From the NCBI GenBank assembly GCA_964592965.1, contig CAZQJX010000001.1, positions 1 to 53,656 of the forward strand: a stretch of 53,656 nt of DNA, in the 5' to 3' direction. This stretch comes from an uncultured bacterium. Lineage in GTDB: Bacteria; RBG-13-61-14; DRUE01. The translations under genes were made by a program, and so were the position numbers. The notes beneath the pieces were generated by a model. The model saw only the letters and a program-made list of their open reading frames with translations, was not told where the DNA came from and did not search any database. This document shows, piece by piece, positions 24,621-41,884 of the stretch; positions within the stretch are counted from its first letter, which is position 1; the number at the start of each line of letters is the position of its first letter.

Positions 24621-24649
24621 TTGACAAACATCCTCTTTTCAGTTAATTT
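24621..24649 (+). promoter_or_regulatory. Candidate sigma-70 promoter upstream of the XylF-like gene
   Basis: TTGACA (24621-24626), a 17-nt spacer, then TAATTT (24644-24649). It would give a very short or absent leader before the ATGs at 24655/24658. By-eye match only. Confidence 0.3.
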
Positions 24650-24654
24650 TGCTG

Positions 24655-25662: not shown

Positions 25663-26555
25663 GTGAAGAGCAAGCTGGCCGGCTGAGCTTTCTCAGGTGG
25701 GGATTAAGATATTACAGTGTTTTATTTTTTCTCGGATATCCAATTTTAGGAGCCTTTTTCAGCCTTCCTGATTTTTCAATAAAAAACCTAATTAAGCTTA
25801 TATTCTTTGGCTTTTTTAATCTTTTATTTCTTTTTCAGGTTTTTATGTTTAATGATTGGGGTGATTATCAATTCAATCCTGATGAGGCACAAAGACGGTC
25901 TCGTCAGGCATTAAAGCATCCAGAGCTGGTTAGCGAGCGTCAGATTCTGGCATTGTGTATAATCTTAGCTCTGATTAGTATTCTGGGAATATTTGCTCTT
26001 TCATTGAATTCAGCAGCGGTGGTAATTGTGGTGTATCTTATTAATCTTTTTTACTCGCATCCCCGGCTGAGTCTAAAAAAAATGCCTGCATTGGCAGAGC
26101 TTGCGCATTTGTTAGGAGGCGGGCTTTACTTTCTTTCTGGATGGCTTTTGTTTGAGAAACCCAGTGGTTTTTCCCTTCTCCTTGCAGGATTTTTTGGCAC
26201 AATCCTTATGGCAGGAAATTTCCCCAATCAGATAGAGCATTTTGAAGAAGAGCTTAAAAGCGGTCTTCGCACCTCTGCAATTGCTTTTGGAAAAAGGCAG
26301 GTACATAATTTCTCCCTCTGGCTTTTTGTGCTTTCTTCAGTTTATCTTTTTGCAGTGATGATTTTTCATTCAAAAAATCCATTTTTTATTGGTTCAGGGA
26401 TATTTTTAATTATCAGTTGGCTGGGAGTAATTTTCTCAGCAAGAAATGACCTATTTTTAAAAAATATCTCTAAATTACGCCAGATAATAAGAATTATTTA
26501 TGCAATATTCAGCTTAATCCTTATTTTTGGTATTTTCTGGGAAAAATTGAGATGA
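25659..26555 (+). CDS. UbiA-superfamily prenyltransferase-like membrane protein (divergent motifs)
   Basis: 8-9 TM segments. The first motif is FNDWGDYQFNPDE, where the canonical third Asp of NDxxDxxxD is Asn. A YSHPRLSLKKMP loop is present. The second motif is Glu-rich (EHFEEELKSGLRT) rather than DxxxD. Confidence 0.6.
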   Translation: MSEEQAGRLSFLRWGLRYYSVLFFLGYPILGAFFSLPDFSIKNLIKLIFFGFFNLLFLFQVFMFNDWGDYQFNPDEAQRRSRQALKHPELVSERQILALCIILALISILGIFALSLNSAAVVIVVYLINLFYSHPRLSLKKMPALAELAHLLGGGLYFLSGWLLFEKPSGFSLLLAGFFGTILMAGNFPNQIEHFEEELKSGLRTSAIAFGKRQVHNFSLWLFVLSSVYLFAVMIFHSKNPFFIGSGIFLIISWLGVIFSARNDLFLKNISKLRQIIRIIYAIFSLILIFGIFWEKLR

Positions 26556-27412
26556 AAGGCGAGCTTTTTCTAGTTGCCACTCCCATTGGTAATTTAAAAG
26601 ACATATCTGAGCGGGCAATAGAAAGTTTAAATCAGGCAGATATAATTCTTTGTGAAGACACCCGCAGAACTCGGGCGCTTTTAAGCCATTTAGGAATAAG
26701 AGGCAAAAAGCTCATCAGCTTTAATGAGCACAATCAGGACAGGCGCATTCCGCAAATCCTTGCCCAGCTTGAGCAGGGGAAAAAAATCGCACTGGCAAGC
26801 GATGCTGGCACTCCAGCTATATCTGACCCAGGCGGAAAGCTTGTTGAGCTCGCTCACAAAAAAGGGATAAAAATTACACCCATACCCGGAGCAAGCGCCA
26901 TTACCACTGCTCTGAGCGCTAGCGGATTTCCAGCAGAGCGATTCCTTTTTCTAGGATTCCTTTCTGCAAAAGCCGGCGAGAGAAGAAAACTTTTGGAAAA
27001 ATATAAAGATTTTCCTGAAACAATCGTTATCTTTGAAGCACCGCATAGAATAGAAAAAACCATCAAAGACCTGCTAGATGTGCTCGGCAACAGAGAAGCC
27101 TGTCTTTGCCGAGAGCTCACCAAAGCATTTGAAGAAATCCGACGCACAAACCTAAGCGAGCTTCTTGATCACATAAAAACCAATCCTCCAAAAGGAGAAA
27201 TCACTTTGATTCTTGAAGGAGCTGAAAAAGAAATTTCTTTAGATTTCAATGAATTAGAGAAAAAACTTAAAGATATAATTACAGAAAAGCTAGCTCAGGG
27301 TAAAAAACTTAAAGAAATAGTTGAGGAAATTGCCAAATCTTACGAAATTTCAAAAAATAAAATATACAAGCTTGCTCTGGAGATAAAAAACTCCCTAGAG
27401 AAAAATTCTTAA
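26552..27412 (+). CDS. rsmI: 16S rRNA (cytidine1402-2'-O)-methyltransferase
   Basis: LFLVATPIGNLKDIS, CEDTR, SDAGTPAISDPG and FEAPHR motifs. Confidence 0.9.
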   Translation: MKGELFLVATPIGNLKDISERAIESLNQADIILCEDTRRTRALLSHLGIRGKKLISFNEHNQDRRIPQILAQLEQGKKIALASDAGTPAISDPGGKLVELAHKKGIKITPIPGASAITTALSASGFPAERFLFLGFLSAKAGERRKLLEKYKDFPETIVIFEAPHRIEKTIKDLLDVLGNREACLCRELTKAFEEIRRTNLSELLDHIKTNPPKGEITLILEGAEKEISLDFNELEKKLKDIITEKLAQGKKLKEIVEEIAKSYEISKNKIYKLALEIKNSLEKNS

Positions 27413-28779
27413 CCGGTGCTTTTGCTTTTTGCTAAAAGGGATTGGTAAATTTCAAAAAGCTCATTGTAATGATGGTTAATATCTTTAACTTGCGGGATTC
27501 TTTCAGCTAAAAGTGTTATTTCCTCTGGATTTTTCAGCAAGTGCTCAATTTTTTGGGCAAGGTCTTTTGGGTTGTTTGGTTCAAAAAGCGCTCCTCCGCC
27601 TTTTTCCAAAAGTTCTTTCATTCCGCCAAGGTTGCTGGCAAGGACTGGGGTTTTTGCAAGAAAAGCCTCGTGGATGATGAGCGGAGAGTTTTCATACCAC
27701 AGGCTTGGCACAACCAAAAGGTCAAGCTCGGAAAGGATTTTTGGAACTTGGCTGTGCTCTGCCCTTCCCATCCATTTTATTCTCTGGTCAGCTCCTGCAA
27801 TTTTTTTCAGCCAGCGGACATAACCGGGAAAATCCTCAAGTGCACCGTAAATTCTCAGCTCAAGCTCTTGGCTTTTAATCTGCTTGATTGCCTGAAGCAA
27901 AATGTGCACTCCTTTGTGCGCAACCAGAGTTCCGATGTATCCGAGCACAAGCCTGCCTTTTTCCCTTACCGCTTTCTCAACATAACCTTCAAGCTCAAAG
28001 CCGTAGTCTGAATGAATAATCTTTTTCACTGGAATCATTTTGGAGCTGACCATCATTTGTTTAAGAAAATTACTCGGAGAGATAATAAGGTCAAGTGCAT
28101 CCACAACCTTTTTCATCTCCTGCCATCGCTCTTTGAGCAATTTTTCTTTTTCTTCTAATTTTTGCTTGCGTCCGAGTTTATCCCTCAGCCAATCCACCCA
28201 TTTTGGTGGTAGGGTTCTTTTGATTTTATGAGCCAATCCCAAAGCATATTCAATTGACTTTTGAATTGTGGCTGGGAAACCGCCTGGAATCATTGCGCTC
28301 ATAGAATGTGGGCAACTAATACAGGCAGAAGATTGCTCTGGGTCTGGGCAGGGAACATATTGTGGTTTGAGCATTATAATTGCTGGGCAGATAAGCCAGT
28401 AATCAGCAAGGGTGAGTATGCAGGGAATACCTCTTTTTTTTGCTTTATGCACAAATCCCACGCTGAGCCGAAAAAGATGCTGAAAGTGAATTAGCTCTGG
28501 CTTGAGCTCATCTAGCACTTTGTCAAAGATTTCATCAAAATCTTCTCTTAGATAAGTTGAACGAAAATCTCTTGCGCCTGAATGATAAAGCCGAAAAACT
28601 TTAATTCCCTTGTATTCCTCTTCTTTAAGCTCAAATCCAGGCTGGGAGCGGTCTTCGCTTGTAAATATCCATACCTCGTGCCCTTTTTCGCTGAACTTTT
28701 TTGCTAAAGAATGCGTATAAATCTCTGTTCCTGCCTGATGACGAGGCAAATAGTAATGAACCACATAAAGGATTTTCAT
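27409..28779 (-). CDS. GT4-family (GT-B) glycosyltransferase with a four-Cys insertion
   Basis: MKILYVVHYYLP...GTEIY start and a C-terminal E..P......EA motif (ENSPLIIHEAFLAKTPVLAS). Insertion DYWLICP-x12-C-x8-CxxC at about 28312-28389. This is the last gene of the long operon. Its stop overlaps the rsmI stop (TTAA). Confidence 0.85.
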   Translation of the reverse strand: MKILYVVHYYLPRHQAGTEIYTHSLAKKFSEKGHEVWIFTSEDRSQPGFELKEEEYKGIKVFRLYHSGARDFRSTYLREDFDEIFDKVLDELKPELIHFQHLFRLSVGFVHKAKKRGIPCILTLADYWLICPAIIMLKPQYVPCPDPEQSSACISCPHSMSAMIPGGFPATIQKSIEYALGLAHKIKRTLPPKWVDWLRDKLGRKQKLEEKEKLLKERWQEMKKVVDALDLIISPSNFLKQMMVSSKMIPVKKIIHSDYGFELEGYVEKAVREKGRLVLGYIGTLVAHKGVHILLQAIKQIKSQELELRIYGALEDFPGYVRWLKKIAGADQRIKWMGRAEHSQVPKILSELDLLVVPSLWYENSPLIIHEAFLAKTPVLASNLGGMKELLEKGGGALFEPNNPKDLAQKIEHLLKNPEEITLLAERIPQVKDINHHYNELFEIYQSLLAKSKSTG

Positions 28780-29792
28780 TTTTTTCGCTTAAACAGCTTT
28801 TGGTAAATTTTATAAAAAATAGTTGATTTAACCTTTTGATGAAAATCCTCCAGCTCGGAAACATAAGCTCGCAAATGTTTTATCTCCTCATCTTTGTCTT
28901 TCAAAACTTGCTTGAGCTGGTCAATTTCTTCTGCTAGCTTTTTAAGCTCACCGTGCTTAAAAATTTCCAGCCACATTCGCATTTTTTCATAATCAGGCTC
29001 TTGGTCAGAGGAGATTTTTGCGATAAGGTCATCAAGGGCTGAAGGGTCGTTTTGGAGAAGCGAGCGAGATGCTACTATGAGATGCCTGTATGCAGGCTCT
29101 GATAAATCCTTCCAGAAAAAATGCTGATTGTAAAAGCGAGTAAGCTCATCTCGGATTTTATCTCCGGAAGGAATTCCCTCAAAAAAATAATAGCAAAGCA
29201 TCATAACAATCCAATTCTCAAGTTTTCCATTGGGGATAATGATGGTATCAAAGCCGAGTTTAACCAGCTCTGATTCAGTCTCAAACAAGCTTGGAGAAGC
29301 TATTTCTAAATGCTCCTTTAAATACAAATGCTCCCAGCCAAGCCACTCCTTGATGAAATCAAAAACTAATCTCTCTGCCTGACGAGCCAGCTTGTATTGA
29401 AAAGGAGCTGATATAAGAACCAGCTCCGCACTCACCCGAGCAAGCTCATTAATGGCAGTATTTCGCTCCTCTGGCAAAAGATGCTCCAAAAGGTCAACAC
29501 TAACCACCACCTTAAATGAGCGGTCAGCAAAAGGAAGTGAAAGCGCATTTGCCCGAACCCAGCGGTCTTTTTTCTCTGCAAGAAGGTCAACAATAAAAAG
29601 TGTGCTGGGCGCAAAAAACCTCTCGCCTATGCCAGGATGACCGCCTACTTCAAGTATTTCCGTTTCAGCTGTGCATAATCCCAATCGCTCCAAAACTTCA
29701 GCGCAAAGCCGATACCGCTGATACTGGTCAAAAGGAAAAGATAAAAGCTCTGGGCTGAGATATTTCATATTCAAAATCCTGCTTTTTATCAT
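28776..29792 (-). CDS. Class I SAM-dependent methyltransferase with a C-terminal coiled coil
   Basis: ILEVGGHPG motif I and VVVSVDLLEHL. The last 60 aa or so are heptad-like (LKKLAEEIDQLKQVLKDKDEEIKHLRAYVSELEDFHQKV). Confidence 0.7.
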   Translation of the reverse strand: MIKSRILNMKYLSPELLSFPFDQYQRYRLCAEVLERLGLCTAETEILEVGGHPGIGERFFAPSTLFIVDLLAEKKDRWVRANALSLPFADRSFKVVVSVDLLEHLLPEERNTAINELARVSAELVLISAPFQYKLARQAERLVFDFIKEWLGWEHLYLKEHLEIASPSLFETESELVKLGFDTIIIPNGKLENWIVMMLCYYFFEGIPSGDKIRDELTRFYNQHFFWKDLSEPAYRHLIVASRSLLQNDPSALDDLIAKISSDQEPDYEKMRMWLEIFKHGELKKLAEEIDQLKQVLKDKDEEIKHLRAYVSELEDFHQKVKSTIFYKIYQKLFKRKK

Positions 29793-29793
29793 T

Positions 29794-30375
29794 TTATCGC
29801 TGGCGAATTATCTTTGCAGGAATTCCGACTGCAATGGTATTTTCAGGAATATCATCCAGCACCACGCTTCCAGCACCGATCACAGCTCCTGAGCCAATTT
29901 TCACCCCAGGAAGAACAATTGCTCCTGCGCCTATCCAGACATCATCACCTATTTCTATTGGCTCGCTTATCTGCTCCTGAAGCTGATGAGGCACTCCTCG
30001 CTCAATACCATGATTAGCGCCAATAATCGCCACCCCAGGTCCCAAGCTTACCTTGTTGCCAATACGAATAGGTGCAGAGACCGCACGAATGGTAGAAAAA
30101 CTGCTGGCAACAAAATCATCGCCAATCTCTATCCATTCAAACCCCATAAAAACAACGAATGGCTCCACTCGGGGATTTTTCCCCACCTTCATTCCTTTTT
30201 TGATCGCATACTCAAGGGAATGATGATGAAAAAATCCTGCCCAGCGAATGAGCGCATCTTCAAGCTCAATGATTTGGGGAGAGGTTTTGCGCTCCTTGAC
30301 GATTTGATAAATCCGATTTAAATCAGGGTCGTCCATCAGACGCTTGAAAAACCTGAGCTTGTCAAAAATCCCCAT
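29794..30375 (-). CDS. Left-handed beta-helix (hexapeptide) O-acetyltransferase
   Basis: Hexapeptide repeats IGDDVWIGAGAIVLPGVKIGSGAVIGAGSVV, then the typical IP.NTIAVGIPAKII ending. Confidence 0.8.
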   Translation of the reverse strand: MGIFDKLRFFKRLMDDPDLNRIYQIVKERKTSPQIIELEDALIRWAGFFHHHSLEYAIKKGMKVGKNPRVEPFVVFMGFEWIEIGDDFVASSFSTIRAVSAPIRIGNKVSLGPGVAIIGANHGIERGVPHQLQEQISEPIEIGDDVWIGAGAIVLPGVKIGSGAVIGAGSVVLDDIPENTIAVGIPAKIIRQR

Positions 30376-32125
30376 CTTTTTCCCCCTGAGTTAGATAGGG
30401 TCTTGACCAAAAAGCAACGCACCAGTCATTGGAGCGCTCGGTTTTGGTCTCAAGAATAAGCCCAACCTTTTTCTCTGCAAATTGCCCAAGGTCAACCATA
30501 AAATCATTCCATTTTCTCTCATCAGGATTGTGTTTGGGGTCAAGATAATGAGAAAAAACCACTTTTTCTTTTCCAAGCCTTGTTTTGACTTTTACCAGAT
30601 ACCAGCATCCCTCTCCAGGCTTATCCCATACATCTGGGCTGAAACTAGCTCCAAAAATCAGCTTGGTATGAGGCTTAATCTCAACCTTCCAGCTCACCCT
30701 GCTCGGTGGGTGAATTAAAATGCTCATTCTATCTTTGCCCCTAACTCGTGTGAGCATAATTTGCACATAACCCTCTCCGCCTTCTTTGATTTTAGCCTTG
30801 TCAAAATTGGCGCAAAGGTCATAATAGCCCTTTGCTCGCTTTCTTGCTGACCAAATCCAACCCCATTTGCGGAATTCTTGGAAAAGCTGGTTGAATTTTT
30901 CATCAGAAAGGTCAGGTAATTTTACACGGGGCTGATAGAAAAAAATAGAAGTAGCAGGTCTTTCTAAAAGCAATCCTTCCCGTCTGCATTTTTCATAAAG
31001 CTCAGTGCCAGGAAATGGCTGAAATATAGAAAGAGAAAGATGGTCTGGGTTGAGAAGCCGGTTAAGCTCCATTGTTTTCTTTATGGTCTTTTCATTATCT
31101 CCTGGCACACCCACCATATTCATACTCCAAGTTTCTAGTCCAAGCTCATCTGCCCATTTGAAAAGCTGAATGATTTGTTCATTGGTCATTTTGCGGTTCA
31201 TTACCTCTTTTCTTATCCGCTCATCACCGCTTTCAACGCCGATAAGAATAGAATAAAGCCCGCTTTCTGCCATCAGCTTTAAAAGCTCATAATCAACTGT
31301 TCCCACCCGAACAAAAATCCTCCAAGGAGTGGAAAAATGCTTTTTGTATTCCTGACAGAACTCCACCACCCATTTTCTTGAGCTGGTAAAAACTTCATCC
31401 ATAAACATTAAAGTTTTTAGCTGGGGATATTGCTGGTGAAGAAGTTTTATTTCCGCAAGCATATTCTCAATTGACCTTCTCCTGTGCCACTTACTTACTC
31501 CACCTGCCAGCTGACTTAAAACCGAATTACAGCAATATGTGCAAGCAAAAGGACAGCCCCTGCTTGCCATTACTGTTATTTGATTATCGTTTTCTTCCAG
31601 AAGGCGAGCCTCATCATAAATTTTCCTGTCAGGAAAAGGAAGCTCATCCAGATTAACAGGCGAGCGAAGCGGATTTAGCTTTATCTGATTATTATCCTTA
31701 AAGCCGAGATTTTTTATCCTTTGAAAATCCCTTTCTTTTTCCAGCGCCTCTACCAGCTCAAGTAGAGGAAATTCTCCCTCTCCCCTGATTAAAAAATCAA
31801 AAACATCTTCTTTGAGCACTTCTTCTGGAACAATGGTCGGATGAATTCCGCCGATGACAATGGGAAGACCAAGAGCGGATTTTACTGCCCTAGCATATCT
31901 TTTCACAAATTGATACTGAAGAGTTGAACAGGAAAAGCCGAGCAGGTGGGGAGAGAATTTCTTTACCTCATAAATAAATTCTTCATCTGTTATTTCTTTT
32001 TCAACATACAAAAGCCCAACCTGATGACCGCTTTGCTTGAGAGTTGCACTTATCCAGCCAATTCCGTGCTGGTAATGATAAATCTGACCAGAGCCAATAT
32101 CTGTATATACCAAAAGTATGCGCAT
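30362..32125 (-). CDS. Class B (B12-binding domain) radical SAM enzyme with an extra C-terminal module
   Basis: N-terminal B12-binding-like fold (MRILLVYTD...LLGFSC...VIGGIHPT...IRGEGE), rSAM CPFACTYC, and a C-terminal module of about 123 aa (30365-30733) shared with two other proteins in the operon. Confidence 0.85.
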   Translation of the reverse strand: MRILLVYTDIGSGQIYHYQHGIGWISATLKQSGHQVGLLYVEKEITDEEFIYEVKKFSPHLLGFSCSTLQYQFVKRYARAVKSALGLPIVIGGIHPTIVPEEVLKEDVFDFLIRGEGEFPLLELVEALEKERDFQRIKNLGFKDNNQIKLNPLRSPVNLDELPFPDRKIYDEARLLEENDNQITVMASRGCPFACTYCCNSVLSQLAGGVSKWHRRRSIENMLAEIKLLHQQYPQLKTLMFMDEVFTSSRKWVVEFCQEYKKHFSTPWRIFVRVGTVDYELLKLMAESGLYSILIGVESGDERIRKEVMNRKMTNEQIIQLFKWADELGLETWSMNMVGVPGDNEKTIKKTMELNRLLNPDHLSLSIFQPFPGTELYEKCRREGLLLERPATSIFFYQPRVKLPDLSDEKFNQLFQEFRKWGWIWSARKRAKGYYDLCANFDKAKIKEGGEGYVQIMLTRVRGKDRMSILIHPPSRVSWKVEIKPHTKLIFGASFSPDVWDKPGEGCWYLVKVKTRLGKEKVVFSHYLDPKHNPDERKWNDFMVDLGQFAEKKVGLILETKTERSNDWCVAFWSRPYLTQGEKDGDF

Positions 32126-33150
32126 TATTCTCTCCTCATATAAAGCCCTATGCAGTCATCGCAGGCAGGACTAAAGCCTTTTTTTAGCATATCCTGCTGA
32201 AATTTTCTTGCTATGTCTTTTTGCCAGATTTCATCAAGAGATTCATCATTAAGATTGCCTAAAATCAATGTGGTTGGTTTTTTTGTTTTTTTATCTTTTT
32301 TCAAAAACCTTACAGGATATCCTAATGCACAGCAGGGACTAGCTTCTCCATTGGCTTTGATAAAAATCTGGTCAATGGGAAAAACCCCGCATCCCCACTG
32401 CCTTTCTTTATGCACCTTTTCAGGGAAAATAACCTCAAGCTCTCCTTTAAATTCCAAGGCAATATCATTGATAAGTTGAAAGAGCGCATCATCAGAAAAA
32501 TCAATATCATAATAGCCTGAATAGGTAATTTCATCTAGGTCTTTGGGAGAAAAAACACCGCCCATCTGCTGAAATAAAATTCCGTCCATTCCCCATTCTA
32601 GCATCTTCTGGGCAAAGGGCTTTAGGTCAAAAAGATAGGATTTTTGCAAAAGGTAGCTGGCATAAATTTTGGGCTTTTTTAGTCCGAGCTGATTTCTTCT
32701 TTTTAGCAAGCTTTTAATTTCTTTTTCTATTTTATCCCAGAACCTTCCTCTTCGCTTTTCATAAACAGCTTTACAAGAAGCATCTATAGAAAAGCAAATA
32801 ACATCCACCTGATTTTCAATAATGGAATTGATTTTTTCTTGGTCAAGTAAAATGCCATTTGAGGTAAAGCTCAAGGTTTGAGAAAACTGAGAGCGAATGA
32901 GCCTGAGCGCTCTTGCAAATTCAGGATGCATAAGAGGCTCGCCCCAGCCAGTAAGGTCAATAGTTTTTAGCTTAGAGATTTGGGGAAGGATTTTTCTAAG
33001 CAGTTCCATTTGCATATTTTGATTTTTGCCTGCACCTTCCCAAGCATTTCTCAGGCAGAACCTACAGGAAAGATTGCAATAACTGGAAAGCTCAAGATTA
33101 ACTGCCCGAAGCTTGGTTAAAGCTTGCGAGTTTTTTTGAGAAAAACTCAT
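32125..33150 (-). CDS. Radical SAM enzyme with a SPASM/twitch-like C-terminal Cys domain
   Basis: CNLSCRFC at residues 25-32. C-terminal WGC-x18-CC ... CDDC. The start overlaps the upstream stop (ATGA) and the stop overlaps the downstream start (TAATG). Confidence 0.8.
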   Translation of the reverse strand: MSFSQKNSQALTKLRAVNLELSSYCNLSCRFCLRNAWEGAGKNQNMQMELLRKILPQISKLKTIDLTGWGEPLMHPEFARALRLIRSQFSQTLSFTSNGILLDQEKINSIIENQVDVICFSIDASCKAVYEKRRGRFWDKIEKEIKSLLKRRNQLGLKKPKIYASYLLQKSYLFDLKPFAQKMLEWGMDGILFQQMGGVFSPKDLDEITYSGYYDIDFSDDALFQLINDIALEFKGELEVIFPEKVHKERQWGCGVFPIDQIFIKANGEASPCCALGYPVRFLKKDKKTKKPTTLILGNLNDESLDEIWQKDIARKFQQDMLKKGFSPACDDCIGLYMRRE

Positions 33151-34199
33151 TCAAATCCACCTCGCAAAAACTCGCTGATGCTCAAAGAATCTCCCAGAGA
33201 ACAGCTCAAACCGCATTTTGGGCAAAGTTGTTTTTGGATTCTTTTCCTTAGCTCCCTAGTAGTTTTGCTCTTCCAGAATTTTTCTGCAGAGACCTGCAAG
33301 AAATTTACCTTTTGCCAGTTGGAAGAAAGCGGGCAGGGAATCCAGCTTCCATCAGAATCAATGACCACTGTTGAATAAAGGCTTAAGCATCTTCTAGTGC
33401 GTCTTTTTCCGCTTAGAATTGAAATCAGGCTTTTATAATGACTTTTATAACCAGCTGGTAGCTTGTTGATAATTTCTTTCAAAAACTCAATGACTGCCTG
33501 CTTTTCGTCTGGAGAAAGGCTTAAGCTTTGAGCAAGCTCTATGTTGCTGTAATACTGGTCCGTTATCTCCACCAGATTAAAAGTTATGCTGGCGCTTTGG
33601 CTTTGGGCAAATTCAAAAATCTCTTTTAGCTGAAAATAATTTCCCTTTTGAATTACGCAGTTAAATCCCAGCTCCAGCCTGTGGCAGGGGAATTCTTCTT
33701 TTAATTTTTTAAACCTGTCTATTGTTTTAATAAGGTTTTCAAAAGCATCTTCTTTTCCACGAATTTTATTATGAGGCTCGCCAATACCATCAAGAGAGAG
33801 ATGAAGAAAAAATCCCTGTTTAGCTGGATTTAGCTTTTGGAGCATCTCTCGGCATCTTAAAATAATTCGCTCCGAATTATAGCCATTGCTTGCCATACCT
33901 AGTATCTGCATTTTGGGAAGGCTTTGATTAAAAACCTCTGTCAGCTCTGCTAAATCTTTGCGCAGGCTCGGCTCCCCGCCAGAAAGCCAGACCACCTCTA
34001 TTTTTTGAAAAAGTTTATTCTTTAAAAGTTCTCTAAGCTCATCTGAGCTAAGCTCTATCTTTTTTTCTGACTTCCATACTCCGCAATGCTGGCAGGCAAG
34101 GTCGCATCGCCGAGTGGGATTGAAAATAAAAAATCTGGGCAGGGGAATAAAAATTCTTCCTGCTCCATAATAAAAAGCAATTTTTACAAGGTCATTCAT
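33147..34199 (-). CDS. Radical SAM enzyme with a SPASM/twitch-like C-terminal Cys domain
   Basis: CDLACQHC. C-terminal RRC-x17-C ... CPKCGLSC. The start is placed at the ATG at 34199, 2 nt after the upstream stop. The track ORF begins at a TTG at 34253 and would overlap by 62 nt. Confidence 0.75.
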   Translation of the reverse strand: MNDLVKIAFYYGAGRIFIPLPRFFIFNPTRRCDLACQHCGVWKSEKKIELSSDELRELLKNKLFQKIEVVWLSGGEPSLRKDLAELTEVFNQSLPKMQILGMASNGYNSERIILRCREMLQKLNPAKQGFFLHLSLDGIGEPHNKIRGKEDAFENLIKTIDRFKKLKEEFPCHRLELGFNCVIQKGNYFQLKEIFEFAQSQSASITFNLVEITDQYYSNIELAQSLSLSPDEKQAVIEFLKEIINKLPAGYKSHYKSLISILSGKRRTRRCLSLYSTVVIDSDGSWIPCPLSSNWQKVNFLQVSAEKFWKSKTTRELRKRIQKQLCPKCGLSCSLGDSLSISEFLRGGFE

Positions 34200-35301
34200 T
34201 TTCTTCAAGGAGCTGGTGGAATTTTTCGTTCTCAAATATGTATCCGCATTCAAGGCAATCGCATTGCTGGGGCGGACCGAGCTGGGGAATTTTAAGCATC
34301 CTATCCCTTATTTTCTGCGCCTCTTCTCCTTTCCATATTTCATAAAAGCTTTTTTCAGTGAGCTTTCCCAAGACCTGCTCGCAGTTGCAACAAGGACGGA
34401 CAGAGCCGTCTGGATATATCATTGCAAACACATATCCTGAATAGCAAGGCAGTTTTTGATAAATATCTCCAGCACGAAGTTTGCCCAGATGCTCATCTTT
34501 GCCAGTAAAGCCAAGATATATGCCTGATTTTTCCGCCAAAGGCTTCAGCTCCTCAATTCTCGCTGAAAATTCCTGATACTCAGCTTCACTAAGAGCATAT
34601 TCTCGCACTGGCTCGCCTGCAAAAGGAAAATCCATAAGAGAAATAAAAGTAAGGGCATCTGCACCTGAGTTTCGGGTAAGCTCAAAAAGCTCTTTTACCT
34701 CAGAATAATTAAATCGGTTAAGAACAGCGGTTAAAGAAATAAAGGGTTTTTTGTTTTGCCGAAATTTAGAAACCTGTTCTATGCCTTCCCACAGCTCATA
34801 AAACTTTTCCTCTCCTATGCCCATCTGCCGGGAATAACTTTTAGAAGTGCCTGCATTTACGCTGATGGAAATTCGGTCAAGACCAATCATACAGATTGCT
34901 CGGGCAAATTGCTTAAGAAGTATGCCATTGGTAACAAGGGCAAGCTCAACATCGGGAAAGTCTCTCCGCAGAAGAAAAAGAAGCGGAATGATGTGCGAGT
35001 AAACAAGAGGCTCTCCGCCTGTTATATGCACTCTTTTAAGCCCGCCCAGCCGATACAGGTCATCAATTAGATGGTCAAGAATTCCGGGATTTAAATCCTT
35101 TGCCTGCTCCAGCCAGCGTGGTGCGAACTTTTGCTTGGCGCTCTTACTCACTGCAAACATCGGACAGAACACACAGCGGGCATTACAGCGGGTGGTAGGA
35201 AGAATCTGTAGGTCCAAAGGACCTTTAAAGACTCTGTGCTGGCTGAGCGCGGTTTTAAGATAGGCTATGCTTTCCTTACTAAACAATCTATCTCTCCCCA
35301 C
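34192..35301 (-). CDS. Radical SAM enzyme with a SPASM-like C-terminal Cys domain
   Basis: CNARCVFC. C-terminal LPC-x17-CCNC ... CDCLEC. The GTG start overlaps the upstream gene by 14 nt. Confidence 0.8.
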   Translation of the reverse strand: MGRDRLFSKESIAYLKTALSQHRVFKGPLDLQILPTTRCNARCVFCPMFAVSKSAKQKFAPRWLEQAKDLNPGILDHLIDDLYRLGGLKRVHITGGEPLVYSHIIPLLFLLRRDFPDVELALVTNGILLKQFARAICMIGLDRISISVNAGTSKSYSRQMGIGEEKFYELWEGIEQVSKFRQNKKPFISLTAVLNRFNYSEVKELFELTRNSGADALTFISLMDFPFAGEPVREYALSEAEYQEFSARIEELKPLAEKSGIYLGFTGKDEHLGKLRAGDIYQKLPCYSGYVFAMIYPDGSVRPCCNCEQVLGKLTEKSFYEIWKGEEAQKIRDRMLKIPQLGPPQQCDCLECGYIFENEKFHQLLEENE

Positions 35302-37078
35302 CTTCTTTTGCCACCAGCAGGGGACTGGAAAATCCAGCAGTGTTGTAAATGTTTTTTTCTGGGTCTTTGGGCTGAGTCTCTAGCTGAAGAAAAATCAATC
35401 CCTGCCAGCTGGAGAGGTCAAGTTTAAAATCAAATACTCCCCTGTCTTGTTTTTTTCCCTGAGCATCAAGGTATTTGGAAAATATCTCTATCAGCTCATT
35501 TGGTTTTTTGCCCAGCCATACTTTAAATATCACTCCTTTGTTCTGCGCCTTTTCATAAACTCCTGGGTGGATAAGTATTCCAAAATTAAGTTCAGCAGGC
35601 TCAGTTAAATTAATCTGATATAAAATTCTTGTTGGTGGATGCATAATCAGCACCCGGTAGACATTTTCATAAATCATCAGGTATTCTTCTCCCCAGTAAT
35701 CAGGCACAGGGGAGAAGATTTCTGCTTGGTCAAGCTCATCAATCAGGTCATAAAGGATTTTTTTATCTTGATATTTTCTTCGCAACCCCTTTTGATAACG
35801 GAAAAATTCGCCCAAGCGAACTAACCTTTGATGCCAGTTGTGAATTTCCTTTGGCGAGAGACTGGGAAATTTCAAGGCGGTCTCTGGAACAAAATAGCCG
35901 TCTTTGATTTGGTCTTTCAAATATCCTTTTTCCAGACAAACCTGATAAAGAGCAGTGCCAGGATAAGGATTAAAAACACTTACCTGCATATGGTCAGGAG
36001 CAAGCCTTCGGTTGAGATTATATGTTGCTAGAGCATCTTCGCTTGTCTCTTCAGGAAGACCAACCATATTAAACGACCATGTCTTAATTCCTGCCTGCTC
36101 CGCTTCTTCAAATGCCTTTATGATTTGCTTTTGTGAGATTCGGCGATTCATTATCTCCCTGCGCACTCGCTCACTTCCGCTCTCAACGCCAATCCTTACC
36201 ATCTCACAGCCAATCTCTTTTAGCTTCTGAAAAATCTCTGCATCAACAGTTCCGCAGTGAACATTTATTCTAAAAGGATATGAAAATCTCTTGGGATACT
36301 TTTCATAAAACTCTTCCAGCCAGGCTCGGTTGAGGGTGAAAATATCATCATTAAAATCCAAGCTTTTAATCTGATAGTTTTTTGAGCAGTTTTCTATTTC
36401 CGCAAGCAGATTATCAACGCTACGAAGCCTCACATACTTTCCCTTTCTTTTATAAAGCTCTTTTTTTGCCTGATTAGCACAATAAGTGCAATCAAATGGA
36501 CAGCCCCTGCCAACAAGAAGGCTCAAGCGCCTGTCATCTCCATCTAAAATCTCCTGATAGTTAAAAACCTCTCGGTCAGGAAAAGGAAGGCTGTCTAGGT
36601 CTGGAATTAATGGTCGGAGCGGATTTTTAATCACCCTGCCCTTCCATTTAATCCATAAATTTTCCACTTCAAGATAAGAGCGGTCTTGCTCAAGAGCTTG
36701 GGCTAGCTCAACAATAGCCTCTTCTCCTTCTCCTCGGCAAACAATATCTATTTCTGGCACAGATATAGTCTCTTCCGGCGCCAAAGTGGCATGCACTCCA
36801 CCGCAGATGATAAGGGTTTTGGGAAAATCCCTTTTTATCCACCGTCCCAATTTCACCAGATACCTGAATTGGTGGCTGGTGGCGCTAAAAGCGATTAAAT
36901 CTGGAGAAAAGCCTTTTATTTTTTCTCTCAGCTCATCTTCATTGGGAAAATGAGAAAGATATAAAAGCCCGCACCTATGCCCCTGTTTTTTCAAAACCGA
37001 AGATAAATATCCTATTCCGTGCTGATAGTGTTTTGGTAAAAAACTGCCTAAATCAGGATATATGAAAAGAATGTTCAT
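35288..37078 (-). CDS. Class B (B12-binding domain) radical SAM enzyme with an extra C-terminal module
   Basis: MNILFIYPD...LIAFSA...ICGGVHAT...CRGEGE, rSAM CPFDCTYC, and a C-terminal module (35291-35662) homologous to those of the 30362-32125 and 37301-38746 proteins. Confidence 0.85.
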   Translation of the reverse strand: MNILFIYPDLGSFLPKHYQHGIGYLSSVLKKQGHRCGLLYLSHFPNEDELREKIKGFSPDLIAFSATSHQFRYLVKLGRWIKRDFPKTLIICGGVHATLAPEETISVPEIDIVCRGEGEEAIVELAQALEQDRSYLEVENLWIKWKGRVIKNPLRPLIPDLDSLPFPDREVFNYQEILDGDDRRLSLLVGRGCPFDCTYCANQAKKELYKRKGKYVRLRSVDNLLAEIENCSKNYQIKSLDFNDDIFTLNRAWLEEFYEKYPKRFSYPFRINVHCGTVDAEIFQKLKEIGCEMVRIGVESGSERVRREIMNRRISQKQIIKAFEEAEQAGIKTWSFNMVGLPEETSEDALATYNLNRRLAPDHMQVSVFNPYPGTALYQVCLEKGYLKDQIKDGYFVPETALKFPSLSPKEIHNWHQRLVRLGEFFRYQKGLRRKYQDKKILYDLIDELDQAEIFSPVPDYWGEEYLMIYENVYRVLIMHPPTRILYQINLTEPAELNFGILIHPGVYEKAQNKGVIFKVWLGKKPNELIEIFSKYLDAQGKKQDRGVFDFKLDLSSWQGLIFLQLETQPKDPEKNIYNTAGFSSPLLVAKEGGER

Positions 37079-37079
37079 C

Positions 37080-37277
37080 TTAGATATGATGCTTCATAAA
37101 GTTCGCTATTGAGCGGTCCCAAGTTGCCTCACCCTCTTTGGTAAAAAAGCAGGCAGGTAGTTCCTTCATTCGCAGATGATAGCGAATGCACTCACAGCAA
37201 ATGCCTTTTCGCTCGCATGGCTCATAAGTGCAGTTGCAGAACTTGAGATTCTTCTCTTTGTTTTTGCACTCTATCAT
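37080..37277 (-). CDS. Small (65 aa) 8-cysteine protein, probably a metal or Fe-S binding accessory protein
   Basis: MIECKNKEKNLKFCNCTYEPCERKGICCECIRYHLRMKELPACFF... A strong SD (AAGGAGGTG) lies 5 nt upstream, and there is a 1-nt gap to the next gene. The CNCTYEPC..KG.CCEC..YH...LPACFF pattern resembles a conserved small Cys-rich DUF family, which I remember as DUF6485 (unverified). Confidence 0.7.
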   Translation of the reverse strand: MIECKNKEKNLKFCNCTYEPCERKGICCECIRYHLRMKELPACFFTKEGEATWDRSIANFMKHHI

Positions 37278-37300: not shown

Positions 37301-38746
37301 TTATGGATGACGAAGAGCTTTTTTTTCTATTTTCTTCTCAATAGCGCTGAGGAATCTTCTTTTAAAATCTATGGTTTTAGTCTGAGCTTTTGAGATAATT
37401 CTCGGTTCCGCCCATCCCACCCATCCATATTTTATCTCATTACTTTTGGTGATTAAATCCAGCCAGATTTTTTTGCCTGCCCAGTTTTTTAGCTCCAGCT
37501 CAAAATCCTGCCAGCTGGTAAAAACATCTTTTTTGGGCACAATGCGCTTTTTAAAGATTAACTCACCTTGCACTGCTACCATAAAATCAACTGGCTGGCT
37601 TCGCTTTAGCCATACTTTGGGATTAAATCCCAAGCTGAATTTAAAAACAGGCTGGCTGGGAAGGGTTAATTGAAAACTTATCATTGCTGGTGGATTGGCA
37701 AAAATCACCCTTTGCCAGCGCTCCCCTACAACAAAAGCGGTTTTAAATACTCGCTTTTTAGCATCTTTTGGATAAATATGAGCTTTTTTGAAAAGCTCAA
37801 GCAAAGATATATAAGAATCAGGTAGAAATGTTTTGCTGGCTAGGTATCTTCCAAGCATCTCCGCTCCCTTATAAAATGGCTCGCATATTCCTGCCCATAA
37901 TTTTTTTTGAAAAGGCTCTTCAAAATTCTCAAGTTCTTTTACAAAGGAATAGCTATCTTTAAAAAAAGCCCGACAAACTTCCTTCAAATCAGGATAATAA
38001 ATTGCTCCGAAATATTTGCCAGCTATTTTTTGGTCAATCCAGCCACGCTTGAACAGGTATAAAACATTGGGCTGGTGGCTATGATAAACCACAGAATCAG
38101 GACAGAAGGCGATTTTGTATCCAGCAAAAAGACAGGCTTTGCTCCAAAGCAAATCCTCTGCCCACTCCACACTTGGAATGGGAATTTTATCAAGAACATC
38201 TTTTCGCCGAAGTGAGCTCACATCATCAAAATCGCAAAACAAAATCCGCTCAATTGGCTCCAGCTTGTGGTATTGCATTAAATCTTTAAGCTCAGAGATA
38301 GCCGGTTGGTTTGAGTAAGCCTTTCTTTTCTTCAGCCGAACCTTTTCTGAAATCGTGGCATTTTCTCGGGGAAGTTGCCTGCTGTATGTTCCTGCGATTT
38401 TCTCATCTTTAAGAGCTGGCTTTACAAGATTAATCAGCCAGTATTCATTGGCAGGAAAAGCATCTGCTACCAGATAAACTAAAAATTCTCCTTGAGCCAA
38501 TTTAGAAGCATAAGCTCGGGTTGCGCCATGAGAAAAACTTTCTCTTGATACCTCAATTAAGCGAACAGAATGATTTTTAGCAAACCAGCGGACAATTTCA
38601 ACGGTCTGGTCAGAAGAGCCAGAATCCACCACCAAAACCTCATAGGCAAAATCTGTTTTCTGATTTAAAACCCTTTCTAGACAGGTCTTGATATTCTTTT
38701 CTTCATTAAGGGTAGGAATGATTATGCTGACCTTCGGCTCCATCAT
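37301..38746 (-). CDS. GT2-family (GT-A) glycosyltransferase with an extra C-terminal module
   Basis: VSIIIPTLNEE...VLVVDSGSSDQT...LVADAFP in the GT-A N-terminal half. The C-terminal module (about 37394-37717) is homologous to the tails of both class B rSAM proteins. Confidence 0.85.
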   Translation of the reverse strand: MMEPKVSIIIPTLNEEKNIKTCLERVLNQKTDFAYEVLVVDSGSSDQTVEIVRWFAKNHSVRLIEVSRESFSHGATRAYASKLAQGEFLVYLVADAFPANEYWLINLVKPALKDEKIAGTYSRQLPRENATISEKVRLKKRKAYSNQPAISELKDLMQYHKLEPIERILFCDFDDVSSLRRKDVLDKIPIPSVEWAEDLLWSKACLFAGYKIAFCPDSVVYHSHQPNVLYLFKRGWIDQKIAGKYFGAIYYPDLKEVCRAFFKDSYSFVKELENFEEPFQKKLWAGICEPFYKGAEMLGRYLASKTFLPDSYISLLELFKKAHIYPKDAKKRVFKTAFVVGERWQRVIFANPPAMISFQLTLPSQPVFKFSLGFNPKVWLKRSQPVDFMVAVQGELIFKKRIVPKKDVFTSWQDFELELKNWAGKKIWLDLITKSNEIKYGWVGWAEPRIISKAQTKTIDFKRRFLSAIEKKIEKKALRHP

Positions 38747-39801
38747 TCTAACAGCTCAGCATTAAACCAAGGACTGCGAGATTCAACAAGGCAAAGCTGA
38801 CAATAATTAGGATACTTCCCTTGTGAAATCCTTTTTCTTGCCTCTTTATATTTATCCCCGTTCCATATCTGCTCAAACCCTGCTTCTTTTAATGTGCCCA
38901 TAAATTCTGCGGTTCCACAGCAAAGAAAAATTCTTCCATTGGTTCTTACTCCAAAATTTATCCAGGGTTGAGGGCATCGCTTGATGCGCTTTTTTCCTTC
39001 CAAATATGTGCTGGTAAAGATTAATCTTTTGCCAAGAGCATCCTTTTTGAGATTTTCAAGCCTGCTCATCAACTCGGCATCAGCGGGAACATAATTCTTT
39101 TGAAAAAAATCCTGATACTTTGCATCAAAGCTGAAAATCGGACTGAGAGGTTCAACCACCAGATGATTTATACCCAAAGAGCTGGCGAATTCTACCACCT
39201 TATCCAGCTCTTTTAGATTCTCTTTGAAAAGCGTAAATTGCATATTAAGATAGGGCTTTGATTTTCCCTGTTTTTTCTTTTCCTCATCAAGCAGTTTAAT
39301 AGCCTCTACCACCTGCTCCAGCTCAGCCCCTCTGCGAATTCTCCGATAGGTATCTGGATTTATTGCATCAATGGAAAATGAAAGGCAGTCTAGCTCAAGC
39401 TCAACCAGTTCCTTTGCGCAGGCAGAATCAATTAAAGTTCCATTGGTATTTAAAATTACCTCCAGCTTAAGCTGTTTTACCTCTTTTGCCAGCTCAAAAA
39501 ACTTTGGATGCAAAAAAGGCTCACCACCACCGCTTAAAAAGCATCTTTGAGCATATTCCAAAACAGGTTTGAGCCTTTGGATAAAATCAAGGTCTAAAAA
39601 TTTCTCCTCATACTGATACTCGCTAACTCCCATTGCCACAGGACACATTGGACAGGAAAGATTGCACACGCTGGTTGCTTCAAGATAAACCACCAGCGGA
39701 AAATGTTTAACTTTTACTTTGCCTTTTTTCCAGGCTATCTGCGCCTGTTTTTTGTTCCAAGCTTTTTTCTCTAAAAGAGAGCTTTTAGCAAAAAAAATCA
39801 T
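38743..39801 (-). CDS. Radical SAM enzyme with a SPASM/twitch-like C-terminal Cys domain
   Basis: CNLSCPMC at residues 46-53. C-terminal KRC-x17-CC ... CQLC. Lies 3 nt after the wzt stop. Confidence 0.8.
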   Translation of the reverse strand: MIFFAKSSLLEKKAWNKKQAQIAWKKGKVKVKHFPLVVYLEATSVCNLSCPMCPVAMGVSEYQYEEKFLDLDFIQRLKPVLEYAQRCFLSGGGEPFLHPKFFELAKEVKQLKLEVILNTNGTLIDSACAKELVELELDCLSFSIDAINPDTYRRIRRGAELEQVVEAIKLLDEEKKKQGKSKPYLNMQFTLFKENLKELDKVVEFASSLGINHLVVEPLSPIFSFDAKYQDFFQKNYVPADAELMSRLENLKKDALGKRLIFTSTYLEGKKRIKRCPQPWINFGVRTNGRIFLCCGTAEFMGTLKEAGFEQIWNGDKYKEARKRISQGKYPNYCQLCLVESRSPWFNAELLE

Positions 39802-41052: not shown

Positions 41053-41884
41053 ACCCCTTTTTCAAGCGGTTGAAAATCCAAAAGCCTAAAACAAGAGAAA
41101 CAGCCATCATCGCTGTAAGAAAAACCACTGATTTTAATTCTGGCAAACTTTTTTCCAGCAAAAGCCTTCTGTATCCTTCTACAAGATGTGCCATTGGATT
41201 GAGCCAGATAAATATCTGGAATTTAGCAGGAACCATATTAGCAGGATAAAATATTGGCGTGGCATACATCCAAACTAAAAGTAGCACTGGCACCAGTTGA
41301 ATAATATCCCTTACCCAAACGCTGAGCCCTGAAATAAGATACCCCAGTCCCAAGCCAAAGCCCAGTTGAACCAAAATCCAAACAAAAACTAAAACCAAGC
41401 CCAAAAAACTCAGTTTTCCTTTAAAACCCGCCCATAAAATTAAAACCAAAAATCCAATCACCTGCCCGCAAAGACCGCTTAAAACAGGAACCGCAGGAAG
41501 AATACCAACTGGAAATTTAACTCTGCTGATGAGGTTGCGATGCTCAATAAGATAACTACCTGCTCTAATTAATCCTTCTTGAAACCCTAGCCAAGGGATA
41601 AGTCCGCAAAGAATATAAAGAGCACTTATTCCAACACCTTTTTCAGCACCGAATTTTGCCTGAAAAACTATGGCAAAGATAAAGGTGAAAATAAGAAGCA
41701 ATAAAAGCGGATGAATAACTGTCCAGAAAATTCCAATCAGGCTTCCAACATACTTACTGCGCAAATCCCGCTCAACCATTCGCCAAAGCAGGCGCCAGTT
41801 TGTCTTCCAGCTAGCCACACCCTTTAATAACCTATCATTTATTTTTGCAAAGATAAAATCTTTTAGCTTAAATTTTTGAGACAC
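41036..41884 (-). CDS. wzm: ABC-2 type glycan-export permease
   Basis: Six-TM ABC-2 profile. The 3' end overlaps the wzt start by 17 nt. Confidence 0.85.
   Translation of the reverse strand: MSQKFKLKDFIFAKINDRLLKGVASWKTNWRLLWRMVERDLRSKYVGSLIGIFWTVIHPLLLLLIFTFIFAIVFQAKFGAEKGVGISALYILCGLIPWLGFQEGLIRAGSYLIEHRNLISRVKFPVGILPAVPVLSGLCGQVIGFLVLILWAGFKGKLSFLGLVLVFVWILVQLGFGLGLGYLISGLSVWVRDIIQLVPVLLLVWMYATPIFYPANMVPAKFQIFIWLNPMAHLVEGYRRLLLEKSLPELKSVVFLTAMMAVSLVLGFWIFNRLKKGFADRV

Follow-up and report, generated by a model that had tools for sequence, protein, structure and literature searches.

Four RRE-less radical SAM paralogues in a conserved gene module of a putative polysaccharide-export operon

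A conserved seven-gene core and its operon

The window analysed here, a 53,656 nt stretch of a contig from an uncultured bacterium (CAZQJX010000001.1, assembly GCA_964592965.1), contains a minus-strand operon in which four radical SAM genes, herein referred to as A–D, are found together with genes for glycan assembly and export (Table 1). Wzm and Wzt are encoded in the same operon as GT2 and GT4 glycosyltransferases. The products of A–D all score above the Pfam gathering thresholds, with 51–82 bits for Radical_SAM (PF04055) and 26–47 bits for SPASM, and each carries the CxxxCxxC motif of the radical SAM superfamily, which is invariant among orthologues.

Table 1. Features of the operon (core: member of the conserved seven-gene module)
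Feature	Coordinates	Strand	Description
GT4	27409-28779	minus	Pfam; last gene of the acyltransferase–methyltransferase–GT4 set that closes the operon
Methyltransferase	28776-29792	minus	Pfam
Hexapeptide acyltransferase	29794-30375	minus	Pfam
Second class-B radical SAM (B12b)	30362-32125	minus	Found in families f1–f3 only
Radical SAM A	32125-33150	minus	341 aa; Radical_SAM 51 bits, SPASM 46.5 bits (Pfam); core
Radical SAM B	33147-34199	minus	350 aa from ATG at 34199; Radical_SAM and SPASM (Pfam); core
Radical SAM C	34192-35286	minus	364 aa from TTG at 35286; Radical_SAM and SPASM (Pfam); core
Class-B (B12-binding) radical SAM (B12a)	35288-37078	minus	B12-binding and Radical_SAM (Pfam); C-terminal module of ∼150 aa; core
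DUF6485 protein	37080-37277	minus	65 aa, 8 Cys; PF20095 45.6 bits; core
GT2 glycosyltransferase	37301-38746	minus	Glycos_transf_2 81 bits (Pfam); core
Radical SAM D	38743-39801	minus	352 aa; Radical_SAM and SPASM (Pfam); core
Wzt with Wzt_C	39805-41052	minus	ABC_tran, Wzt_C 72.6 bits (Pfam)
Wzm	41036-41884	minus	ABC2_membrane (Pfam)
GT-C/PMT_2-type membrane glycosyltransferase	42377-43975	minus	PMT_2 41 bits; upstream of wzm

The start sites of two of the genes were refined by comparison with orthologues. The longest ORF of B begins at a TTG (34253), yet its orthologues are 349–352 aa in length, pointing to the ATG within the ATGAATGA overlap with C; similarly, the longest ORF of C begins at a GTG (35301), whilst the orthologue-type TTG start is preceded by GGGGAGAG, a Shine–Dalgarno-like run. 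With these starts, the overlaps amount to 8 nt between C and B, 4 nt (ATGA) between B and A, and 1 nt between A and the following class-B gene.

The gene order D–GT2–DUF6485–class B–C–B–A recurs in 10 loci from four families of the order, at 31–67 % identity, with B12a present in every one; judged from sequence, this seven-gene core is inherited vertically. In the present genome it is flanked by Wzm/Wzt (with Wzt_C) on one side and by the second class-B enzyme, acyltransferase, methyltransferase and GT4 on the other. The order of the last three is repeated in loci L001, L002 and L051, and that of the Wzm/Wzt–glycosyltransferase operon in L001 and L051; in relatives of family f4 the core lies away from Wzm/Wzt. 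The C-terminal module of the class-B enzymes is shared with GT2, the tail of which was matched to B12b by phmmer. The operon lacks genes for nucleotide-sugar synthesis from which the sugar could be identified, and a WecA-like gene is located elsewhere in the genome.

N-termini, cysteine patterns and kinship of the four paralogues

The preliminary description of this DNA had noted that the CxxxCxxC motif begins only 25–50 residues from the N-terminus in all four proteins. This is borne out: the first residue of the motif is at position 25, 50, 39 and 46 (A–D) in the ORFs as listed, and at 25, 32, 34 and 46 with orthologue-type starts, leaving only 24–45 residues ahead of it. As the stop-to-stop frames lengthen the N-termini by at most 18–26 residues, a hidden N-terminal domain is impossible. 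Furthermore, PqqD (PF05402) had no Pfam match in A–D, using either whole proteins or N-termini alone, and confident AF2 models of A and C (pLDDT 92 and 94) contain no winged-helix fold, with only a disordered stretch or a single helix before strand β1. An RRE acting in trans was likewise not detected in the operon, nor above threshold in a six-frame PqqD search of the window, in which the best match (13.7 bits) fell within an unrelated gene; the sole true PqqD ORF of the genome is on contig C64. Thus, an RRE-type search in cis and across the window supports the reported absence of this domain. The conclusion drawn earlier from the short N-termini, that a peptide is the less likely substrate, is weak when taken alone, because anSME has no RRE and yet acts on a protein, and the twitch enzyme SkfB has a peptide substrate (PMC6231123).

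The canonical SPASM domain, which holds two auxiliary clusters, is defined by the seven-Cys motif CX9-15GX4C-gap-CX2CX5CX3C-gap-C (PMC6231123). A regular expression for this motif matched none of A–D, none of which has the CX2CX5CX3C...C portion, whilst the hairpin half (searched as CX9-15GX4C) is retained in all four as CX12-13GX4C; the full signature is therefore missing, as first proposed, and the Pfam SPASM match arises because that model also covers twitch-like tails. The tails read C254-x18-C273C274...C330xxC333 in A, C289-x17-C307...C344xxC347xxxC351 in B, C286-x17-C304C305xC307...C347xC349xxC352 in C and C276-x17-C294C295...C334xxC337 in D, with B combining its CxxCxxxC with an invariant upstream Cys (C199 in long-ORF numbering). 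The twitch domain is a truncated SPASM domain with one Cys before a β-hairpin, one after it and two beyond the next helix. Alignment to BtrN revealed this arrangement in A, C and D, whereas B has the pattern (C289, C307, C344 and C347) but gave no BtrN alignment in the profile search. Outside the radical SAM core, orthologue alignments contain five conserved extra Cys in A (invariant across 13 orthologues) and five in D, compared with six in B and seven in C. For this reason, the description of all four tails as reduced and twitch-type holds in part: a single-cluster twitch domain appears well supported for A and D only, and B and C may bind more than one auxiliary cluster.

A–D share only 20–27 % pairwise identity, and a phylogenetic tree placed them in four clades that are separated by long branches and mirror one another in internal topology. 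By these measures they are old paralogues in four separately conserved clades, and of the two origins left open by the preliminary description, recent duplicates or distinct subfamilies, the former is rejected. In profile searches against the PDB, BtrN ranked first among solved structures for families A, C and D (E-values of 1e-11, 9e-17 and 6e-12), with coincident twitch Cys (C276/C294/C334/C337 in D and their equivalents in A and C). MoaA was second best for C (62 bits), and B was closest to anSME and the SkfB core (56 and 44 bits); as such, kinship to BtrN extends to three of the four. Fold comparison did not distinguish sugar-acting from peptide-acting relatives: Foldseek TM values of 0.55–0.67 were obtained alike for the peptide maturases CteB, SkfB, SuiB and anSME and for the sugar or nucleotide enzymes DesII, BlsE, MoaA, viperin and BtrN. 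Sequence similarity is in any case a poor predictor of function in this subfamily (PMC6231123).

No curated NCBIfam cut-off was reached by any of the four. The best scores were those of A and D against TIGR04317 (167 and 147 bits, cut-off 380), followed by TIGR04311 (118 and 141 bits, cut-off 400), the names of these top-scoring models being 'tungsten cofactor oxidoreductase radical SAM maturase' and 'putative metalloenzyme maturase'. Such matches might suggest that A–D build a metal cofactor or insert it into a partner enzyme. We consider this highly improbable, as the scores are less than half of the cut-offs and the operon has no oxidoreductase or tungsten/molybdenum enzyme; to our knowledge, these family names are themselves context-based guesses. 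The MoaA model TIGR02666 gave 84, 66, 48 and 44 bits for C, D, B and A (cut-off 284). Separately, identity as sulfatase maturases was rejected, with only 20–27 bits for A–C against the anSME model TIGR03942 (cut-off 349) and no listed match for D; a true anSME (403 bits) is encoded on contig C63.

Protein and lipid as possible alternative substrates

The only small conserved ORF in the cluster is that of DUF6485, which lies within the core in every core locus, and it might be the target of a protein-modifying activity. Sactipeptide- and ranthipeptide-type SPASM enzymes act on small Cys-rich proteins, and DUF6485 is itself small and Cys-rich. A–D could modify a peptide or protein independently of an RRE, in the manner of anSME, introducing thioether or other cross-links into this eight-Cys protein or acting on a neighbouring enzyme. 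Protein substrates are compatible with the absence of an RRE, as in anSME, and with a twitch domain, as in SkfB, and these same two enzymes are the solved structures closest to family B. Against this, DUF6485 is 70–83 % identical over its full length across the order, compared with 31–59 % for the enzymes, a pattern more in keeping with a folded metal-binding protein than with a leader-plus-core precursor. It is also present as one copy per genome in 21 of the 41 genomes sampled, Thermotoga maritima and Methanocaldococcus jannaschii among them, and occurs in unrelated contexts without radical SAM neighbours, a distribution that argues against a precursor role. Moreover, the operon has no protease or peptidase-type exporter, its ABC transporter being of the Wzm/Wzt type, and all RiPP-maturase NCBIfam models remained far from their cut-offs with A–D. 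Taken together, we regard a peptide or protein substrate as unlikely.

Fusion partners of relatives point in the same direction. Among 17 long relatives of D, GT2 or GT4 is the fusion partner in three, and sulfotransferase and methyltransferase domains in one, whilst none is fused to an RRE or peptidase domain. The remainder comprise two with a B12-binding domain, one with TPR repeats and 10 with repeated Radical_SAM/SPASM matches alone; at least two Radical_SAM stretches were found in 15 of the 17. Those fused to glycosyltransferases share the C-x17-CC...CxxC tail of D.

The target of the module might alternatively be a lipid, for example the polyprenyl carrier, a branched or membrane-spanning species, or the lipid moiety of a glycolipid, in which case GT2 and GT4 would add only the head group. 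Consistent with this, the tetraether lipid synthase GDGT-MAS leads the single-sequence PDB search of D and recurs in the profile searches of A and D; HpnJ is the highest-scoring model for the class-B enzymes, which also match a 'lipid biosynthesis B12-binding/radical SAM' model; and a UbiA-family gene adjoins the operon here and in relatives. These scores are, however, far below the respective cut-offs: the Tes/GDGT-MAS model NF045702 gave 41, 40 and 26 bits for D, B and C (cut-off 450), HpnJ 170 (cut-off 577) and TIGR04072 121 (cut-off 360). In addition, no squalene–hopene cyclase was found in the genome (93.7 % complete), the transporter carries the Wzt_C glycan-binding domain, and the fusions within the clade involve GT2, GT4 and sulfotransferase but no lipid enzymes. 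A lipid substrate thus seems fairly improbable, if slightly less so than a protein.

Proposed sugar remodelling and comparison with known systems

As RRE-less enzymes in a conserved module inside an operon for sugar-polymer export, A–D are most likely sugar-remodelling enzymes, and from this context we favour a sugar or lipid-linked glycan as their substrate, with a probability of roughly 60 %. The preference for such a substrate over a peptide, as originally put forward, is strengthened by the glycan operon, the GT2/GT4 fusions and the BtrN kinship of A, C and D, and is weakened by the undiscriminating Foldseek ranking, the proximity of B to SkfB/anSME and the eight-Cys protein in the core.

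For the sugar reading, we infer the substrate class, reaction types and order of steps as follows. Each of A–D would cleave SAM reductively and then abstract hydrogen from a carbohydrate carbon, with the auxiliary cluster accepting an electron or positioning the substrate. The latter might be a nucleotide sugar or, more probably, a sugar within a glycan that the adjacent GT2 and GT4 assemble on a carrier lipid. Judging from analogues, the outcome may be oxidation (as in BtrN), and epimerisation, deoxygenation, decarboxylation (as in BlsE) or C–C bond formation are possible; the two class-B enzymes may contribute C-methylation or rearrangement of the sugar. A–D would act sequentially on one scaffold, and the successive changes suggested by the preliminary description fit with the co-inheritance of A–D and the multi-radical SAM fusions of relatives. 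O-acylation would then be followed by a methyltransferase cap, recognition by the C-terminal domain of Wzt and export. More tentatively, and at somewhat less than even odds, the core may form a self-contained line for radical remodelling of sugars, in which a carrier-linked glycan undergoes successive C–H functionalisations before export (possibly oxidation, epimerisation, deoxygenation, C-methylation or C–C bond formation), with DUF6485 as its dedicated small redox partner carrying Fe–S or Zn.

The closest solved counterpart is BtrN, the 2-deoxy-scyllo-inosamine dehydrogenase of the butirosin pathway (PDB 4m7t/4m7s) and prototype of the twitch enzymes. Its radical SAM core and twitch domain are both matched by A, C and D, with alignment of the pre-hairpin Cys, post-hairpin Cys and CxxC; like A–D it has no N-terminal RRE, and its substrate is small and carbohydrate-like. 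Nevertheless, the scores are just 47–64 bits, A–D are ∼80–100 residues longer, invariant extra Cys are present in A and D (the CC pair) with three more in C, and family B gives no match; instead of aminoglycoside genes, a polymer-export operon surrounds A–D. MoaA (GTP 3′,8-cyclase) also combines a twitch domain and a nucleotide substrate with the lack of an RRE, but C falls well below the cut-off of its model with no Mob_synth_C match, and has seven invariant Cys compared with three and an open iron site in MoaA. Of the enzymes nearest to family B, anSME (the anaerobic sulfatase-maturating enzyme) resembles A–D in lacking an RRE, but its SPASM motif is complete, with all seven Cys and an eighth in addition, whilst the twitch sactisynthase SkfB has an RRE (residues 1–107) without counterpart in A–D. 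Sugar radical chemistry is represented among the top Foldseek matches by BlsE (PDB 7vob) and DesII (PDB 8hzv). AprD4, NeoN and GenK likewise tailor sugars in natural-product pathways by radical SAM chemistry, and the class-B enzymes match the AprD4 model weakly; all scores against enzymes of these types are, however, far below cut-offs, and their substrates are small secondary metabolites rather than an exported polymer.

At the operon level, the closest parallel is provided by O-polysaccharide pathways of the Escherichia coli O8/O9a type, in which Wzm, Wzt with Wzt_C, GT4/GT2 polymerising enzymes and a terminating methyltransferase form the same set as found here in one operon; the difference lies in the six radical SAM enzymes of the present operon. 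We know of no described ABC-transporter-dependent O-polysaccharide pathway with radical SAM enzymes, and literature searches returned no description of a Wzm/Wzt-type pathway containing them. If the core does form the self-contained remodelling line outlined above, it would represent a class of polysaccharide tailoring without described precedent, and each of the four paralogues would define a new functional family within the twitch-type enzymes. A-like genes are additionally found in other phyla (22–38 % identity), where a class-B radical SAM gene lies alongside in 19 of 42 loci; those in L013 and L029 are divergent from GT2 and GT4 genes, and that in L020 adjoins a gene for a DegT sugar aminotransferase.

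Gene starts, age and family membership of the four radical SAM enzymes

Each of the four minus-strand proteins A–D exceeded the Pfam gathering thresholds for both the Radical_SAM domain (51–82 bits) and the SPASM iron–sulfur domain (26–47 bits). B and C were shortened relative to their longest ORFs by starts that orthologues and public gene calls use: the start of B falls within an ATGAATGA stretch that it shares with the stop codon of C, and the start of C comes two bases past the preceding gene's stop codon, behind a GGGGAGAG run. With these starts the first residue of the CxxxCxxC motif falls at position 25 (A), 32 (B), 34 (C) and 46 (D), and at 25, 50, 39 and 46, respectively, in the longest ORFs, as in the preliminary description, which had placed the motif 25–50 residues from the N-terminus. 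The stop-to-stop frames gain at most 18–26 residues, and the short N-termini are therefore genuine rather than an annotation artefact.

Features of the radical SAM operon and its flanks, in operon order (rSAM, radical SAM; class B, B12-binding)
Feature	Position	Strand	Remarks
GT-C/PMT_2 gene			upstream of operon
Wzm		-	
Wzt + Wzt_C		-	
rSAM D	38743-39801	-	352 aa; 3.4 kb upstream of contiguous A-B-C
GT2 with extra C-terminal module		-	module 37301-37760
DUF6485	37080-37277	-	65 aa, 8 Cys
Class-B rSAM (B12a)	35288-37078	-	module 35288-35760
rSAM C	34192-35301 (longest ORF)	-	364 aa from TTG at 35286
rSAM B	33147-34253 (longest ORF)	-	350 aa from ATG at 34199
rSAM A	32125-33150	-	341 aa
Class-B rSAM (B12b)	30362-32125	-	module 30362-30830
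Hexapeptide acyltransferase		-	
Methyltransferase		-	
GT4		-	
Sugar-binding-protein-like, UbiA-family and TP_methylase genes	24649-27412		flank the operon

Pairwise identity among A–D is 20–27 %. In a 44-sequence maximum-likelihood phylogeny drawn from families A–D only, each protein fell into a separate clade (support 99/97, 100/100, 100/100 and 94/93 for A, B, C and D, respectively), with long branches between the clades and parallel branching orders within them. This identifies them as old, distinct paralogues rather than recent duplicates; they were separate already before the order radiated and have been co-inherited since. None reached the cut-off of any NCBIfam model, the best scores being those of TIGR04317 for A and D (167 and 147 bits, cut-off 380), MoaA for C (84 bits, cut-off 284) and NirJ1 for B (67 bits, cut-off 650). 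A–D belong to none of the curated families; placement within a known peptide-maturase clade was also looked for, with a negative outcome.

Fold relatives and auxiliary-cluster cysteines

Foldseek searches of the PDB with two AF2 models (A and C) returned CteB, SkfB, SuiB and anSME interleaved with DesII, BlsE, MoaA, viperin and BtrN at TM scores of 0.55–0.67; as enzymes acting on peptides are mixed over this range with those acting on sugars or nucleotides, the comparison fails to discriminate substrate class. Family profiles were more telling, single-sequence PDB searches reaching the rSAM core only and profiles being needed for the twitch domain (a truncated SPASM domain of BtrN type with one auxiliary cluster). 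BtrN was the top profile match of A (E-value 1e-11), C (9e-17) and D (6e-12), and in a second matched stretch the Cys before the hairpin, the Cys after it and the CxxC were aligned with those of BtrN. Whereas A, C and D match BtrN first, the profile of family B aligned with SkfB in its rSAM core and with anSME from end to end.

The C-terminal tails read C254-x18-CC ... C330xxC333 in A, C276-x17-CC ... C334xxC337 in D, C289-x17-C ... CxxCxxxC in B and C286-x17-CCxC ... CxCxxC in C. These are the reduced patterns already described for the four proteins, with two additions, and the earlier statement that the full seven-Cys SPASM signature is absent also held: the canonical motif CX9-15GX4C-gap-CX2CX5CX3C-gap-C (PMC6231123) was matched by none of the four, and its first half is kept in all of them as CX12-13GX4C. 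In alignments of 9–13 orthologues, A and D each have five invariant Cys residues outside the SAM cluster, B has six, among them the upstream C199, and C has seven. A and D thus resemble twitch domains of BtrN type with a single surplus Cys, and B and C have ligands enough for something beyond a twitch domain. A and D can be called 'twitch-type' with confidence; the first cluster of C is likely of this type, and B may be.

The operon and its conserved core

All operon genes are tightly packed on the minus strand. The 13-gene arrangement was found with its order kept in metagenome contigs and one family-level relative (∼50–60 % identity), and a seven-gene core (D-GT2-DUF6485-classB-C-B-A) in four families of the order (31–51 % identity). 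Two of the ten core loci deviate, L055 showing no D gene and L058 (genome G008) no detected DUF6485. The exporter and tail genes are confined to the closer families; in the family f4 the core is bordered instead by a DctP gene and genes for membrane proteins of the sulfatase family, and no Wzm/Wzt was found at the core loci L054 and L057. The sulfatase-family proteins at these loci (L054:1243-4814, L054:13761-15836 and L057:11989-14070) are 520–700 aa in length and carry a long extension at the N-terminus (LtaS/EptA-like layout), and a DctP solute-binding protein stands beside the core. Outside the operon and its flanks the window encodes housekeeping functions, namely PBP2, MreBC and rSAMs of the futalosine pathway, and a WecA-like gene is present elsewhere in the genome. 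The sugar-binding-protein-like, UbiA-family and TP_methylase neighbours of the operon recur in L001 and ERZ1426824, both from relatives.

The GT2 and both class-B rSAMs end in a common module of ∼110–150 aa, for which Pfam gave no match; a relation to Wzt_C was undetectable (hhalign probability 1.9 %). Some 24 further ORFs of the source genome were best matched by the two class-B rSAMs of the window (e.g. C44:7178-8626, C48:6013-7419 and C166:2224-3630), an unusually large paralogue family for a 2.58-Mb genome.

Substrate of the four enzymes

The preliminary description had argued from short N-termini, too small for a PqqD-like peptide-recognition domain (RRE), that the paralogues more likely act on a sugar, nucleotide-sugar or lipid-linked intermediate than on a peptide. 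Pfam detected no PqqD/RRE in A–D or the other operon proteins, nor when the N-termini of A–D were searched by themselves, and the AF2 models (pLDDT 92 for A, 94 for C) place a nine-residue disordered stretch or one helix ahead of the first barrel strand. A six-frame PqqD search found nothing in the window but a 13.7-bit match within an unrelated methylase gene, and one true PqqD ORF in the whole genome, at the end of contig C64 beside ExbB/ExbD-like genes and with no link to the operon. The expected lack of an RRE in the N-termini and neighbouring ORFs was thus confirmed, yet these negative tests argue less than is apparent, because anSME has a protein substrate but no RRE, SkfB has a twitch domain and acts on a peptide, and, according to the authors of the SkfB structure, sequence clustering in this subfamily predicts neither fold nor function (PMC6231123). 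A–D warn against calling every rSAM/SPASM protein a peptide maturase; a missing RRE is, too, insufficient for assigning a sugar substrate.

Further links to glycans were found beyond the operon. An exhaustive search with D returned 249 cluster representatives at E ≤ 1e-30, and 17 long relatives taken from the top 150 were scanned for domains. Three carry glycosyltransferase fusions (GT4-rSAM/SPASM, GT2-rSAM/SPASM and rSAM/SPASM-GT4) and have the tail C-x17-CC ... CxxC, as in D; in one the fusion partners are sulfotransferase and methyltransferase domains, two have a B12-binding domain (a class-B enzyme joined to rSAM/SPASM modules), one has TPR repeats and ten show repeated Radical_SAM/SPASM matches alone. 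At least two Radical_SAM stretches were present in 15 of the 17, and an RRE or peptidase domain in none. Distant A-like genes of other phyla (22–38 % identity) have class-B rSAM neighbours at 19 of 42 loci; at L013 and L029, GT2 and GT4 genes lie divergently to a trio of order classB-classB-A, and at L020 the neighbourhood includes a DegT-type sugar aminotransferase.

Taken with the operon context, the conservation of the module and the BtrN-like twitch domain, the glycosyltransferase fusions make a carbohydrate the best reading of the substrate of A–D, at a probability of about 0.6; the earlier interpretation is partly supported, with the short N-termini alone contributing little. The Cys-rich DUF6485 protein encoded within the core could in principle be a peptide substrate. 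However, it is more strongly conserved than the enzymes, with 70–83 % identity from end to end; 21 of the 41 genomes sampled, Thermotoga maritima and Methanocaldococcus jannaschii among them, have it in a single copy; and in other phyla it lies in unrelated neighbourhoods with no rSAM genes. The role of a folded helper that binds metal, perhaps as a redox partner, would fit this protein better than that of a substrate. Its conserved pattern is CNCTY.PC.RKG.CCEC..YH...LPACFF, it usually occurs without rSAM neighbours, and nothing on it was found in the literature searched.

A reading of A–D as anSMEs, prompted by the sulfatase-family genes next to the core in a related family, was rejected because A–C score just 20–27 bits and a true anSME (TIGR03942, 403 bits) is found elsewhere in the genome. 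The match to that gene (C63:6525-7592) contains one in-frame TAA; the gene may be broken, the assembly wrong at this point, or two ORFs present. A hopanoid (HpnH/I/J-like) reading is less favoured, as the genome yielded no squalene-hopene cyclase; the substrate could conceivably be a lipid of another kind.

Radical SAM chemistry on sugars is known almost exclusively from small-molecule antibiotic pathways. The literature searched contained no paper on radical SAM enzymes in Wzm/Wzt glycan operons, the sole precedent encountered being a Campylobacter capsule locus whose rSAM gene is uncharacterised. Should an exported cell-surface polymer indeed be tailored by the four twitch-type and two B12-type radical enzymes, bacterial glycans would be able to carry modifications unpredicted by ordinary glycan enzymology, such as C-methyl, deoxy, keto or epimerised centres or carbon–carbon links. 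As the module is compact, conserved and equipped with its own glycosyltransferase and exporter, this is directly testable by heterologous expression.

A D-like paralogue on another contig of the source genome (C10:32500-33561), considered as a second glycan locus, was uninformative: it stands next to ftsZ in convergent orientation, where the dcw cluster of cell-division and cell-wall genes ends; its tail is C-x17-CC...CxxC, as in D. Two class-B rSAMs of ∼500 aa together with an A-like rSAM occur in unrelated MAGs (L013:3996-10915, L029:3720-10912 and L034:6960-10948), and in the first two of these the divergent side also encodes a YdjM-like membrane protein.
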